From an uncultured Maribacter sp. (GTDB lineage: Bacteria; Bacteroidota; Bacteroidia; Flavobacteriales; Flavobacteriaceae): DNA of 64,000 nt. The translations under genes and the position numbers were made by a program. The stretch's first letter is position 1. Each line of letters begins with the position of its first letter. Positions 21,087-26,816 of this stretch are shown here, one piece after another. The stretch is taken from NCBI GenBank assembly GCA_964614665.1, contig CAZTLZ010000001.1:563-64562 (forward strand), given 5' to 3'. Under the pieces are notes generated by a model. The model saw nothing but the letters and a program-made list of their open reading frames with translations, ran no database searches and had not been told where the DNA came from.

Positions 21087-21303
21087 TTACAAATTTAAAA
21101 TTAGAGGTCAAAATGTGCATTTCATCGAAAAAACACGTCGTTAAACGTCCAATTTAACACTATCGCCGTAAATTTTTAGGTAGTACAACGAAAATCTAAG
21201 TATTTCAATACTACTTATAAACCTAAGCACGTTATAGTAAACAACTACGTTAATAGTAGCCCCAAGCACTGTGAACGAAAACTTACTAACGCCCTACATG
21301 CCA

Positions 21304-22809
21304 ATGGAATATTTTGTCAATTGTAATGCATCTACTCTTGCGCCCCACACAAATGCCTTAACCAAAGAACAAGTTCAACATCTCTATCGAAGGTTAGGAT
21401 TTAGCGCTTCAATACAAACTGTTAATAGCCAAGTAGGCCAAAATGCCGACCAAGTGGTTGACAACTTGGTCAATCAGGCAATTAATACGGCACCTCTACC
21501 TGCCCCGACCTGGGCCACATGGAACAATAGCAATTACCCTGCTGACGATGATGCTGCGGGAGCATTGCGTAGAGCTCAACGAGGTGAATTTAGCTTGGAT
21601 TATTCAAATGCACTCCTGAACAATAATTTAAGAGATCGTCTCAGTTTTTTCTGGAGCAATCACTTTGTTACCGAGTTGGATGTGTATGAATGTAATGCAT
21701 TTCTTTATGAGTATTTCAATTGTCTGCAACGCAATGCAATAGGTAATTTTAGAACTTTCGTAAGCGAAATTGGGCTTACAAATGCCATGTTATACTATTT
21801 AGATGGCGTATATAATAATGGAAACAACCCTAATGAGAATTACGGTCGAGAATTATATGAATTATTCACTTTGGGTGATGAAAATGGCTATACTGAAATT
21901 GATATAGTAGAAGCCTCTCGCGCCCTAACTGGATATGTTGAGAGGGGTGAATTAGGCTGTGAAACTGTTCAATTCAGTCCTGAAAACCATGATACCGGTA
22001 GTAAAACCATCATGGGACAAACAGGTAATTGGGGGTATGACGATGTCATTAATATTTTATTCACACAACGATCAAGCGAAGTCGCTGGATTTATATGTAG
22101 AAAACTGTATGAGTTTTTTGTACACCCAGATTCCAAAGAAGATTTTGTTAATGAAAATATTATTCCAGAAATGGCAGCGACTTTTGTTGCCAACAACTTT
22201 GAAATCGCCCCCGTACTTTCCCAATTATTCAAAAGTCAACACTTTTTTGATGATGAGGCTATTGGCGTGATTATAAAGAGTCCGTTTGATGTTTATTTCA
22301 ATCTTCTTAAGGAAACTAATTTCGCCTACACGGATACTACAGTAGAAACGGCCGTGAACTATAGCGACATGTTAGGACAAACCCTCTTTGATCCAGTAGA
22401 TGTAGCAGGTTGGCAGCGAGACCGGAAATGGATCAATACCAATTTCATGATTGGCCGTTGGTTAACCACACAGGATATGGTTGAAAGCTTTTATCAAGCT
22501 GATGACGAGCAGTTTAGAGCCTTTGCAGAAGATGCGGTCGGCCCAGCCAATAGTGACACCAGTAACCCTGAAATAGTAGTAAGGGCTATTGTTGAGAAAT
22601 TGACCCCAAAAGGGATGTACACTGATGAAGAATTCAATAACTGTATGTCAGCTTTTAAAATAAATGATATCCCCGAAATCTATTATGGTGATGATTATAT
22701 CCAGGATGGCCAAGGGCTATGGGTATTAAACATCTACCCTTCAGTACCTCAACAGGTATATCTACTAATAAGACATCTTACTAGACAACCAGAATTCCAA
22801 CTCAAATAA
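21304..22809 (+). CDS. DUF1800 domain protein
   Basis: HLYRRLGF, LRDRLSFFWSNHFV, AMLYYLDG..N..PNENYGRELYELFTLG, HDTGSKT, PVDVAGW; start 21304 assumed (track gives GTG 21271). Confidence 0.88.
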   Translation: MEYFVNCNASTLAPHTNALTKEQVQHLYRRLGFSASIQTVNSQVGQNADQVVDNLVNQAINTAPLPAPTWATWNNSNYPADDDAAGALRRAQRGEFSLDYSNALLNNNLRDRLSFFWSNHFVTELDVYECNAFLYEYFNCLQRNAIGNFRTFVSEIGLTNAMLYYLDGVYNNGNNPNENYGRELYELFTLGDENGYTEIDIVEASRALTGYVERGELGCETVQFSPENHDTGSKTIMGQTGNWGYDDVINILFTQRSSEVAGFICRKLYEFFVHPDSKEDFVNENIIPEMAATFVANNFEIAPVLSQLFKSQHFFDDEAIGVIIKSPFDVYFNLLKETNFAYTDTTVETAVNYSDMLGQTLFDPVDVAGWQRDRKWINTNFMIGRWLTTQDMVESFYQADDEQFRAFAEDAVGPANSDTSNPEIVVRAIVEKLTPKGMYTDEEFNNCMSAFKINDIPEIYYGDDYIQDGQGLWVLNIYPSVPQQVYLLIRHLTRQPEFQLK

Positions 22810-22820
22810 AACCTACTACT

Positions 22821-24545
22821 ATGTGCGATACTCATGATGACGACTTAACCCCATACAAAGGGCTCGAACACGATGGCCACGAAACGGAACACAAAGATTG
22901 GAGCCGCCGTTCTTTTTTACAAGCTTTGGGTATTGCCGGATCCGGTTCAATGATGTTAGGTAGTAGTATGTTGACAGCTTCCGGACCATCGCCTTTGACC
23001 ACCGCAATCGCTGCTGCGGAAACCGACAACATTTTGATTCTTATTCGGTTATCCGGTGGCAACGATGGTTTAAGTACCGTAATTCCTATCGAACAATACG
23101 ATGCCTACGCCAATGCTCGGCCCAATATTTACATTCCTGAGAGTAAGATCTTAAAGCTTACCGATGAATTTGGCGTACCTTCTTATATGAGCGCGGTACA
23201 ACCCATGTGGGATCAGGGGCAGTTTAAAGCTGTTCATGGAGTAGGTTATGATAATCAAAGTTTATCGCACTTTACGGGATCCGATATTTTTGCCAATACC
23301 GATTTGGAGACCACAGGTTTTTCCGGTTTGAATACCGGATGGATGGGTCGTCATTTCGAACATCTGTATCCCGATTATTTATCAGATTTCCCAGGAAGTC
23401 GTCCTGAAGGCCCTGCTGCAATACAAATTGGAAATTATGGCAGTTTGGTATTTGAAGGTGAGGAAACCAATTATGCTTTTGTCACCAACAATCTTGAACA
23501 ATTGGAAACAATTGCCGGTACCGGATTACAATATTCCGTCGATGAAGTGGATGACACCTGTATGTATGGTGATCAAATCAAATACTTAAGAGGTGTATCA
23601 AATGTAACCAATGAATATGCTGGTAAAATACACGAGGCATATGTAAGAGGTGAAGCATTGCGATGTGTTGAATATCAAGACAATTACTTCGCTAGACAAT
23701 TAGCTCTTTTGGCAAGTTTAATCAAAGGAAATCTTGGAACAAAAGTATATATGATATCTATGGGCGGTTTTGACACCCATGGTAATCAACCTTTGAACCA
23801 TGCCCGTTTGATGACAAACTTGTCTGTTGCCATAAATAACTTCTATGAAGATTTAGCTTGTACCCAACAAGATGAAAAGGTTTTGAGCATGACCTTCTCT
23901 GAATTCGGGCGACGAATTTTTGAAAATGGTTCAAATGGTACCGATCATGGTAAAGCTGCACCAACCTTATTCTTTGGTTCAGGTTTGAATGGAAGCGCCT
24001 TTGTGGGTGAACATCCTTCTCTTACCGAGGGCAACAATCGCGGAAATCTAGAAAAAACCATGGACTTCAGAGATCTCTACGCCACTGTTTTAGCTGAATG
24101 GTTGTGCGTTGATATTCCCCTGGTAGAACAGCACCTATTAGGTCATCCTTATGCCCCGGTCAACTTAGGTTTTAATTGTAGTGGTATAGATTTTCCAGAT
24201 ATTGTTTATAGCGATGGCGAACCTACTATACCCGGTTCAGGAGAACCTGTAGAGCCTACACCGTATGACCCATCATTGTTGGCAGCAGTTGTTCACAAAC
24301 CTTTTTACCCTACTGATCAAACTCCTCACATTTATCTGGAAATGCCTTTTAGCGCTCATGTAGACATAAAATTGTTCAACATACTTGGTCAACAAGTAGG
24401 TACCATTTATAATGAAATGATGATGGAAGGTTCTGTAGAATTGAATATCCGTGAACGCATGCCCCAGCATCTTTCTGCTGGAAAGTATATTTATCGTATC
24501 AATGTTCAGAATCAAAAAATGGCTAAATCTGTTATGGTAGCTTAA
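22821..24545 (+). CDS. DUF1501 domain protein with twin-arginine signal and T9SS type A C-terminal sorting domain
   Basis: SRRSFLQALG; L.GGNDGL, GGFDTH, SEFGRR, GTDHG, DFRDLY; CTD DIKLFNILGQQV..LSAGKYIYRI. Confidence 0.88.
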   Translation: MCDTHDDDLTPYKGLEHDGHETEHKDWSRRSFLQALGIAGSGSMMLGSSMLTASGPSPLTTAIAAAETDNILILIRLSGGNDGLSTVIPIEQYDAYANARPNIYIPESKILKLTDEFGVPSYMSAVQPMWDQGQFKAVHGVGYDNQSLSHFTGSDIFANTDLETTGFSGLNTGWMGRHFEHLYPDYLSDFPGSRPEGPAAIQIGNYGSLVFEGEETNYAFVTNNLEQLETIAGTGLQYSVDEVDDTCMYGDQIKYLRGVSNVTNEYAGKIHEAYVRGEALRCVEYQDNYFARQLALLASLIKGNLGTKVYMISMGGFDTHGNQPLNHARLMTNLSVAINNFYEDLACTQQDEKVLSMTFSEFGRRIFENGSNGTDHGKAAPTLFFGSGLNGSAFVGEHPSLTEGNNRGNLEKTMDFRDLYATVLAEWLCVDIPLVEQHLLGHPYAPVNLGFNCSGIDFPDIVYSDGEPTIPGSGEPVEPTPYDPSLLAAVVHKPFYPTDQTPHIYLEMPFSAHVDIKLFNILGQQVGTIYNEMMMEGSVELNIRERMPQHLSAGKYIYRINVQNQKMAKSVMVA

Positions 24546-24611
24546 TCTGTCATTAAAAAAGAGTTATGATTTATACCACTTTAGTCCCCTAAATCTAACC
24601 CCCGCTATAGT

Positions 24612-24659
24612 AAAGCCTTCGCACCTGTGCCTCGAGTAACTGCGAAGGCTTTCTTTTTT
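24612..24659 (+). terminator. Intrinsic terminator of the DUF1800-DUF1501 operon
   Basis: Perfect 12-bp inverted repeat AAAGCCTTCGCA/TGCGAAGGCTTT followed by CTTTTTT. Confidence 0.85.
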
Positions 24660-24716
24660 GGTCATTTCAAGAAGCCTCCCCATAAAAATCTTTATTTTTG
24701 GGGCTTAAATTCTTTT

Positions 24717-26816
24717 ATGTCTCAAACACAAATAAAACCAGATAGGTACACCATCACCGCAGCATTACCCTATACCAATGGTCCGATTCATATCGGGCAC
24801 TTGGCAGGAGTATATGTCCCTGCAGATATATACACGCGTTATTTACGGTTGACGGGTAATGACGTAGCTTTTGTTTGTGGAAGTGATGAGCATGGTGTGG
24901 CCATTTCAATGAAGGCCAAAAAGGAAGGGGTAACCCCAACAGAGATTATTGATAAATACGACGGTATTATTCGCCGATCATTTCAAGAATTCGGAATAAC
25001 ATTCGATAACTATTCTCGTACTTCTCGAGAAATCCACCATAGAACTGCCGGTGACTTTTTCAAAAAATTACATGAACAAGGAGATTTTCTAGAAGAGACC
25101 ACAGCTCAATTATATGATGAGGAAGCGAACCAATTTTTGGCCGATCGCTTTGTTGTGGGCACCTGCCCAAATTGTGGTTATGAAGAAGCTTATGGCGATC
25201 AATGTGAGAATTGTGGAGCGTCATTGAATGCGATGGATTTGATAAATCCAAAGTCGACGATTACGGGAAGCATTCCAACTACAAAAGAAACCAAGCACTG
25301 GTTTTTACCCTTGGATAAACACGAAGATTTTTTAAGGGAATGGATTTTGAGCGGGCATAAATCAGATTGGAAATCTAATGTTTATGGCCAATGTAAAAGC
25401 TGGATCGATGCCGGATTAAAGCCAAGGGCGGTCACTCGTGATTTGGACTGGGGAATTCCAGTACCCGTAAAAGGCGGCGAAGGAAAGGTATTATATGTAT
25501 GGTTCGATGCCCCAATAGGATACATTTCTTCTACCAAAGAATGGGCAGAGCGAGAAGAAAAAGATTGGGAACCCTATTGGAAAGATGAAGGCACCAAATT
25601 GGTTCATTTCATAGGTAAGGATAATATCGTTTTTCATTGTATCATCTTCCCAGCAATTCTAAAAGCGCATGGGGGTTATATTCTGCCCGAAAATGTACCG
25701 GCCAATGAATTCTTGAACCTAGAAGGTAATAAATTGTCCACTTCCAAAAACTGGGCCGTATGGCTACATGAGTATTTGGAAGAATTTCCGGATATGCAAG
25801 ATGTATTACGATATACATTGACTGCAAATGCCCCAGAAACCAAAGACAACGACTTCACATGGAAAGATTTTCAGGCCCGTAACAACAATGAACTTGTTGC
25901 GATTTTAGGAAACTTCATCAACCGGGTGGTTGTCCTTACCAACAAATATTATGATGGGCAAGTACCGGTTGCAGGAGATTTTTCAAAAGTAGATTCAGAC
26001 ACTTTAGAACAACTTCGCAAATACCCAGAAATTATCTCGAGCTCCATAGAACGGTACCGTTTTCGTGAAGCCAGCCAAGAGCTAATGAATTTAGCGCGTC
26101 TTGGTAATAAATATCTAGCAGACGAAGAACCCTGGAAGGTTATTAAAGAAGATGAAGAGCGGGTAAAGACCATTATGTTCGTAGCCCTTCAAATCGCTAC
26201 CGGTTTAGCAATTTTAAGTGAACCCTTTTTGCCTTTTACCTCTAACAAACTTAAATCAATTCTTTCGGTCACATCGAGCGGAGTCGATATGCAATGGAAC
26301 AATGTTTCAACTAGCGAAATCCTGCTACCCCCAGTCCACCGAATCAACAAAGCAGAACTCCTATTCAGAAAAATAGAAGATACAGAAATACAAGCGCAAC
26401 TTGACAAATTAGAAGCCACAAAAAAAGCTAATGCTTCGACTTCGCTCAGTACAAACTCTACAAACAAAGAACTCATGCCTCAAAAAGACACCATTACCTT
26501 CGACGACTTCACAAAATTGGATATGCGAGTAGGCACTATTTTGGAAGCGGAAAAAATGCCCAAAACCGACAAGCTAATGGTTATGCAAGTCGATACTGGT
26601 TTGGACACTCGTACTATCGTATCTGGTATTGCCGAACATTTTACCTCCGAAGAGCTAATCGGCAGAAAAGTTACGGTACTTATAAACTTGGCGCCAAGAA
26701 AATTACGTGGGGTCGAAAGTCAGGGCATGATTCTATTGGCCGAAGGTGCCGATGGCAAATTGGTGTTTGTCAACCCTGATGAAGATGGTGTTGGAAATGG
26801 CAGAACTATAAATTGA
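24717..26816 (+). CDS. metG: Methionine--tRNA ligase with C-terminal tRNA-binding domain
   Basis: [23 protein letters not shown] zinc knuckle, YVWFDA, KLSTS, C-terminal [14 protein letters not shown]. Confidence 0.97.
26268..26291 (+). repeat. REP-like short palindrome, copy A (in-frame within metG)
   Basis: GTCACATCGAGCGGAGTCGATATG; shares the core GAGCGNAGTCGA with copies B and C. Confidence 0.65.
26433..26456 (-). repeat. REP-like short palindrome, copy B (in-frame within metG, inverted relative to A)
   Basis: Minus strand reads GTTTGTACTGAGCGAAGTCGAAGC. Confidence 0.65.

Follow-up and report, generated by a model that had tools for sequence, protein, structure and literature searches.

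How does a protein with a twin-arginine motif at one end and a putative type IX secretion system (T9SS) sorting domain at the other leave the cell, and does it take along the partner encoded beside it? The question is raised by two genes in a 64,000-nucleotide stretch of DNA from an uncultured Maribacter sp. (contig CAZTLZ010000001.1), hereafter the window. A DUF1800 gene (21304-22809, forward strand, 501 residues, PF08811) lies directly upstream of a DUF1501 gene (22821-24545, forward strand, 574 residues plus stop, PF07394). The initial annotation of the window read DUF1501 as a folded metalloenzyme of alkaline-phosphatase or sulfatase type, exported by twin-arginine translocation (Tat) and then by the T9SS, possibly with DUF1800 carried piggy-back. 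It also held that T9SS cargo normally crosses the inner membrane by the general secretory (Sec) pathway, which agrees with reviews and research papers that describe such cargo as Sec-dependent. From the present analysis the twin-arginine motif stands, as do a remote fold match and a tail assigned by homology; the tail remains under the cut-offs of the curated hidden Markov models (HMMs), and a formylglycine-type sulfatase is not what the catalytic domain encodes. Overall we favour, with a probability of roughly 0.55, a reading in which the operon encodes an extracytoplasmic two-protein module, DUF1501 passing through Tat and then the T9SS and DUF1800 hitchhiking with it.

In this scheme DUF1501, a metal-dependent hydrolase-like protein, would fold in the cytoplasm, where it would probably take up its metal, and the folded protein would cross the inner membrane by Tat via the sequence SRRSFLQ. 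Judged by its signal, Tat export of DUF1501 is highly probable. In Bacteroidota and their relatives DUF1501 would have acquired two additions, a Pro-rich linker and a sorting domain of type A, and the latter would pass the folded periplasmic protein to the T9SS for release or surface attachment; we infer that this outer-membrane step is reasonably probable. The signal-less DUF1800 would bind DUF1501 in the cytoplasm and hitchhike with it through Tat across the inner membrane, a step to which the comparative data lend a chance a little short of even. As a docking or checkpoint element, the DUF1501 signal may use its long n-region, which is rich in Cys and His. In the most elaborate version this n-region would be a dedicated adaptor, and a metal-loaded DUF1800-DUF1501 heterodimer would pass through Tat and then, by means of the single sorting domain, through the T9SS to the surface. 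We consider that version unlikely; if true, it would be the first case both of T9SS cargo supplied by Tat and of a hetero-oligomer carried piggy-back through the T9SS.

The first 27 residues of DUF1501 (22821-22901) form an n-region leader of the pattern MC..H....GHDxEHKxW, which contains four His, six Asp, three Glu and one Cys and in which MC and GHDxEHKxW are retained in orthologues. Residues 28-66 (22902-23018) comprise SRRSFLQ, a Gly/Ser-rich h-region and a c-region. The His/Asp-rich leader and the SRRSFL at residues 28-33 are thus as first annotated, and the motif is canonical: SRRSFLQ agrees with the Tat consensus S/T-R-R-x-F-L-K and runs into the weakly hydrophobic h-region ALGIAGSGSMMLGSSMLTA, with candidate cleavage sites after A52 and after A66. 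When 1.84 billion cluster representatives were searched with the DUF1501 sequence, 10,877 relatives were returned. The best 139 of these, each representing a cluster at 50% identity and approximately 29-77% identical to the window protein, were analysed, and 132 of them, from across phyla, carry RRx(F/L/I/V/M) near the N-terminus. A leader motif related to that of the window, ..LEHGxAHxxDHxxW(S/T)RR, is found in 65 of the 139 distant representatives.

Closer to the window, full-length DUF1501 orthologues are present in all 80 related genome loci at 73-91% identity, the nearest being those of Maribacter (85-91%). Across these 80 orthologues conservation of the h-region and c-region is 90-93%, a level equal to that of the catalytic domain. 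Signal peptides usually drift much faster. Conservation of this degree is unusual for a cleaved signal and suggests an extra role, which could be docking, metal sensing or that of an uncleaved anchor.

At the other end of the protein, the catalytic domain is followed by a variable linker with 7 Pro in 35 residues (residues 456-490; 24186-24290), the Pro-rich linker of the initial annotation, which is 63% conserved among orthologues and modelled with low confidence. Behind it lies the tail (residues 491-574; 24291-24542), 84% conserved among orthologues and modelled as a seven-strand beta-sandwich over residues 491-573 with a predicted local distance difference test (pLDDT) score of about 90; the protein ends at residue 574. 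The PNP motif is replaced in the window tail by KPFYPT. When the C-termini of 138 representatives were scanned with PF18962 (E ≤ 0.01), 100 gave a match, and close orthologues of the window protein have a precomputed PF18962 assignment. Against a profile of 85 canonical, PNP-bearing tails from distant family members, all of them less than 30% identical to it, the window tail scores 35.9 bits. The family tail profile in turn matches solved T9SS sorting domains with E values of 5e-9 to 8e-6, namely the cargo domains 8glk_D and 8glj_D, PorU, mirolase and RgpB; the entries matched include 6za2, 8qb1 and 5hfs. Because of this transitive homology (from the window tail to the family tails and from these to the solved domains) together with the model, we accept the tail as a divergent type-A sorting domain, an assignment that does not come from HMM matches. 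The original call of a type A C-terminal domain therefore holds for the beta-sandwich and its homology to the family tails, and does not hold at the level of the curated cut-offs.

Since 132 of 139 representatives carry the twin-arginine motif and 100 of 138 the sorting domain, at least 93 have both, and a large branch of DUF1501 conserves the predicted combination of Tat motif and sorting domain. Named members include Bacteroidota and Ignavibacteria. The three homologues examined from outside the T9SS-bearing phyla, those of Thermus, Sphingomonas and Ralstonia, are approximately 395 residues long and have no tail; in the examples examined the tail is restricted to T9SS-bearing lineages. In some relatives the stretch between enzyme and tail contains PA14 and ricin lectin domains, cadherin-like repeats or dockerin/EF-hand-like modules, an arrangement consistent with extracellular life, and the lectin and cadherin-like modules hint at carbohydrate-rich or surface-bound substrates. 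Three of the proteins surveyed, P0263 (L089:3001-5454), P0171 and P0166, have either PA14 plus ricin-B lectin modules or long cadherin-like arrays between the catalytic domain and the tail.

DUF1800 accompanies DUF1501 closely. It lies directly upstream at similar spacing in 79 of the 80 related loci, the exception being a truncated contig, and pairs are likewise present in distant Bacteroidota and Ignavibacteria as well as in Thermus, Sphingomonas and Ralstonia. The main new result of this analysis is the comparison of where the DUF1800 proteins appear to be located. The window protein has no signal peptide, as had been noted from the start: its conserved domain begins about 25 residues past the Met, and the residues before the domain include no hydrophobic stretch. 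The DUF1800 proteins of Ralstonia and Sphingomonas, in contrast, have a classical Sec signal peptide, and by a hydropathy test an N-terminal hydrophobic stretch is found in 91 of 117 Burkholderiales DUF1800 homologues versus 6 of 118 from Flavobacteriaceae. Furthermore, four Bacteroidota DUF1800 proteins (L089:1107-2927, L093:758-2434, L094:744-2459 and L096:614-2485) have a near-perfect twin-arginine motif of their own at the N-terminus; the motifs are MKRRDFLRK, MNRRSFMQ, MNRRSFLS and MDRRAFF. The region after the motif in these four is oddly polar, unlike a normal hydrophobic h-region; the motif may represent an unusual signal, or it may target the protein to Tat with no insertion into the membrane.

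We then compared the DUF1800 N-terminus with the length of the DUF1501 leader in 13 pairs. The five pairs with a long His-rich leader, comprising the window and four distant pairs, all have a signal-less DUF1800 with no hidden upstream start, and none has its own twin-arginine motif or a Sec signal. Among the eight pairs with a short leader, DUF1800 is signal-less in two, has its own twin-arginine motif in four and a Sec signal in two. The difference (5/5 versus 2/8) gives a one-sided Fisher p of 0.016 at n = 13, a value uncorrected for phylogeny. The Sec signals in Proteobacteria and the twin-arginine motifs in Bacteroidota imply that the DUF1800 family acts outside the cytoplasm, and as the window protein is signal-less, co-export with a partner bearing a Tat signal would be the economical route. 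The window pair also has the arrangement by which Tat hitchhikers are recognised, a signal-less partner encoded beside a signal-bearing subunit. Taken together, the comparison favours an extracytoplasmic role for DUF1800 with Tat hitchhiking in this clade. The suggested piggy-back is thus partly supported, with comparative evidence at the inner-membrane step and none at the outer-membrane step.

Two further ideas on the link between the proteins were discarded. A pairing of the Cys in the DUF1501 'MC' with that in the DUF1800 N-terminal 'NC' shows no strict co-variation; in the Eudoraea-like loci checked (for example L045) the DUF1501 Cys is lost and the DUF1800 Cys is kept. A representative protein of 1100 residues (P0179), which resembles DUF1800 joined to DUF1501 and a sorting tail, was rejected as a true fusion, since a frameshift or read-through of the two-gene operon seems to underlie it. 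At its junction odd sequence stands in place of the normal DUF1800 C-terminus, after which the DUF1501 leader begins with its own Met. Because of this frameshift-like junction, P0179 was not counted as Rosetta-stone evidence.

Each part of the proposed route has counterparts in known systems. The operon itself, with a Tat prediction for DUF1501, has been noted in Proteobacteria (PMC5122149), where gene order, both families and the DUF1501 Tat motif are as in the window; the proteobacterial DUF1800 differs in having a Sec signal, and the DUF1501 there has a short MxRRxFL leader, no tail and approximately 395 residues. Hitchhiking on Tat is an established mechanism in other complexes, such as HybO-HybC of hydrogenase 2 and PaoABC (PMC4273604), in which a twin-arginine subunit and a signal-less partner are likewise encoded in one operon. 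DUF1800 and DUF1501, of approximately 57 and 61 kDa, fall inside the known size range for hitchhikers, the complex of the pair being a prediction. We know of no precedent for an n-region as docking site, and to our knowledge onward passage of hitchhikers across the outer membrane has not been described. With regard to that second step, the T9SS moves folded proteins (PMC9251779), and some Tat substrates are secreted further (PMC4899797).

Two-step export of a Tat substrate is exemplified by the Pseudomonas aeruginosa phospholipases PlcH and PlcN, which pass through Tat and then the type II secretion system. Common to both cases is a Tat-exported folded protein followed by an outer-membrane system that takes folded cargo; the proposed second step here differs in being the T9SS, to which a C-terminal sorting domain would direct the protein. 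Canonical type-A cargo of the T9SS (RgpB, mirolase and the Flavobacterium johnsoniae domains 8glj/8glk) has the same layout of a C-terminal beta-sandwich of about 80 residues behind a linker. These proteins have Sec signals, whereas DUF1501 has a twin-arginine signal, and the window tail departs from theirs in lacking PNP and in scoring under the curated cut-offs. In the literature searched, which did not span all journals, we found no description of a Tat-then-T9SS route and nothing that links DUF1501 with the T9SS. Relative to that literature the form of two-step secretion predicted here is new.

The favoured reading has to be weighed against three others, the first of which concerns DUF1800. 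In Flavobacteriaceae it might be a non-exported cytoplasmic helper of DUF1501, either a proofreading chaperone that binds the signal peptide or a metal-insertion factor. The lack of a signal would fit such a role, as would the position of its gene directly upstream of a Tat substrate with a long conserved n-region, a gene arrangement also seen with the dedicated Tat chaperones TorD and DmsD. What speaks for export instead is that DUF1800 relatives carry Sec signals in Proteobacteria or their own twin-arginine motif in Bacteroidota, that the conserved motifs FWxNHF and PNENxxRExxELF are common to signal-bearing and signal-less members, and that a protein of approximately 57 kDa is far above the known Tat chaperones in size. 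A purely cytoplasmic chaperone role for DUF1800 of this clade is less likely, and we rate the helper explanation as a whole as rather unlikely. The other two readings concern DUF1501. In one, the C-terminal beta-sandwich of this clade no longer serves secretion; DUF1501 would be periplasmic, as its proteobacterial counterpart is, with the domain acting in binding or as a spacer. This would account for the scores under the PF18962 and TIGR04183 cut-offs and for the lost PNP motif, and it is helped by the fact that the FlgD_ig and DUF3244 models match such sandwiches too and that the validated cargo set of the T9GPred predictor holds no protein with a Tat signal. It sits poorly with a domain placed at the extreme C-terminus behind a variable Pro-rich linker, well conserved among orthologues, recognised by PF18962 in close ones and missing from the three homologues examined outside T9SS-bearing phyla, and we regard it as improbable. 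In the last reading the signal is used by Sec, or is an uncleaved inner-membrane anchor, and the Tat-then-T9SS route does not operate. Here the evidence divides within the signal itself. Conservation of the h-region and c-region equals that of the enzyme core, a Pro follows the first AxA-like site (ASG-P in the window, ASA-P in most orthologues), and the c-region has no basic 'Sec-avoidance' residue; the S/T-RR-x-F-L consensus of the 132 representatives, the Gly/Ser-rich and weakly hydrophobic h-region typical of Tat signals, and the Tat export predicted for DUF1501 proteins by other authors (PMC5122149) all point the other way. We consider this reading very improbable.

Several observations nevertheless count against the combined Tat-then-T9SS scheme. 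The TIGR04183 model, which the initial annotation had named as a check on the C-terminal domain, gives the window tail 18.4 bits, under its cut-off of 23, and PF18962 gives 18.7 bits (22.5 on the isolated tail), under its cut-off of 27. Taken formally, at the curated cut-offs this is the failed HMM that the initial annotation had listed as refuting its reading. A direct profile comparison of the window-clade tail with 8glk_D is not significant (E 0.034, probability 1.5%) and was dropped as stand-alone support, being too weak. An NCBIfam scan of DUF1501 (E ≤ 0.01) returned TIGR04183 as the sole match and no Tat-signal model, and the conserved h-region could mean that an uncleaved signal anchors DUF1501. 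The two short-leader pairs with a signal-less DUF1800 imply that the leader is not needed in every signal-less case. T9GPred requires 'no Tat signal' of a cargo, a rule based on 102 validated cargos, and an experimental report of a Tat-dependent T9SS cargo was not found in the journals searched. Finally, no Tat or T9SS genes lie within the 64-kb window; the presence of both systems in this genome is presumed from what is usual in Flavobacteriaceae, of which Maribacter-like members generally have a T9SS.

If the Tat-then-T9SS reading is correct, the conserved family with Tat motif and T9SS domain suggests a possible class of cargo that predictor filters excluding Tat signals would miss. It would also imply that cargo acceptable to the T9SS includes proteins that have folded, and probably acquired their metal, in the cytoplasm. 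The pair offers a direct test system for the export of pre-assembled complexes by the outer-membrane system of Bacteroidota. For the two large families, the analysis points to an extracytoplasmic location of both, to likely metal-hydrolase chemistry of DUF1501 and to a DUF1800 fold without a solved relative.

The catalytic domain of DUF1501 (residues 67-455; 23019-24185) is covered by a confident AlphaFold2 model of the protein, built from the 139-sequence alignment (pLDDT 85, predicted template modelling (pTM) score 0.81). PF07394 matches the protein with 78.9 bits (E 5e-22, cut-off 27) over residues 290-429 only, and this limited match marks a divergent DUF1501 branch. The model is matched by Foldseek to type I sulfatases, a glycerophosphoethanolamine phosphodiesterase (8yk5), YejM/PbgA and LtaS with a probability of about 1, but with TM scores of only 0.25-0.33 and 8-12% identity. 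Searches of PDB sequences with DUF1501 or with the full family profile gave no match to the catalytic domain. The model thus relates the domain only remotely, and at superfamily level only, to the alkaline-phosphatase/sulfatase-type fold. With members of that superfamily (type I sulfatases, NPP-type phosphodiesterases, 8yk5, YejM and LtaS) it shares the core fold and conserved acidic and His residues after the first strand and in two later loops; sequence-level PDB matches and a formylglycine motif are what it lacks by comparison.

The four putative metal-ligand motifs listed in the initial annotation, GGNDG (residues 79-83; 23055-23069), GFDTH (residues 316-320; 23766-23780), SEFGR (residues 360-364; 23898-23912) and GTDHG (residues 373-377; 23937-23951), all on the forward strand, lie where it placed them and occupy invariant or nearly invariant columns of the 139-sequence alignment. 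In the same alignment D82, S149/H150, D318/H320 and D375/H376 are invariant or nearly so, the Ser149-His150 pair being encoded within 23259-23273 (forward strand). The alkaline-phosphatase/sulfatase likeness claimed earlier is borne out by the remote Foldseek match and fails in one respect: a formylglycine-type (type I) sulfatase is ruled out because the C/S-x-P-x-R motif is absent, SLSHF standing at the equivalent helix N-terminus. The Pfam Sulfatase model does not match DUF1501 even at E ≤ 10. From the secondary-structure string of the model and the invariant columns, Ser149-His150, at a helix N-terminus and in the nucleophile position of the superfamily, is the candidate nucleophile. The invariant set of Asp, Ser-His, Asp-x-His and Asp-His appears to resemble two-metal phosphoryl-transfer sites more closely than a formylglycine site, and DUF1501 is likely to have the predicted metal-hydrolase chemistry.

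The DUF1800 protein matches PF08811 with 323 bits (E 4e-96, cut-off 26.1) over profile positions 1-419 of 419. Its AlphaFold2 model is all-alpha (pLDDT 87, pTM 0.88). Foldseek found no neighbour of the model in the PDB (best E 3.4) and hence no functional lead, PDB sequence searches gave no match, and a profile search with six DUF1800 sequences returned close orthologues alone. On the basis of the model, this large family may have a fold without a solved example. Two candidate starts, 21271 and 21304, are available to the open reading frame. MEYF(V/I)NC is the N-terminus of all orthologues, and in many of them an in-frame stop codon lies shortly before it; the start is thereby fixed at ATG 21304 (MEYFVNC), as originally annotated.

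The two genes form one operon. The 11-nucleotide spacer AACCTACTACT (22810-22820, forward strand) separates the DUF1800 stop codon, TAA 22807-22809, from the DUF1501 start, ATG 22821, confirming the two-gene unit that was first described. Its strong terminator is likewise real as judged by folding: an intrinsic-terminator-like hairpin at 24612-24659 (forward strand) has a G+C-rich 12-bp stem, in which 24612-24623 pairs with 24641-24652, a 17-nucleotide loop and TTTTTT at 24654-24659. It folds with -22.2 kcal/mol (z = -4.3), and none of 200 shuffles was as stable. A pattern scanner for promoters and terminators found no terminator at the 3' side of the pair, probably because the 17-nucleotide loop is over the scanner's limit of 8 nucleotides. 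A GTG open reading frame for methionyl-tRNA synthetase (24627-26816) crosses this hairpin and is too long at its 5' end; its true start is likely ATG 24708.

The flanking genes are of housekeeping type (mfd, two of the beta-lactamase family, a TlpA-like redoxin, UPF0102, metG and PAP2). This gene context is not kept at the distant loci of the pair, and DUF1800-DUF1501 can hence be regarded as a self-contained module. No public RNA run matches 21200-24700, the sole matches being DNA metagenomes labelled plant and algae. Only one of these DNA runs, labelled 'plant metagenome' and belonging to a study that also includes an algae metagenome, covers the region almost fully (95% of sampled words). 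Further along the window, 31163-63806 holds a long, mostly same-strand cluster resembling a flexirubin-type aryl-polyene pigment locus. It includes an aromatic amino-acid ammonia-lyase, several ketoacyl synthases, a ketoreductase, a flavin halogenase, an O-methyltransferase and a BtrH_N/DUF4872 protein, together with an ABC-2 exporter, an MMPL-acyltransferase fusion, a GT2 protein, a polysaccharide deacetylase and an amine-oxidase-like desaturase.

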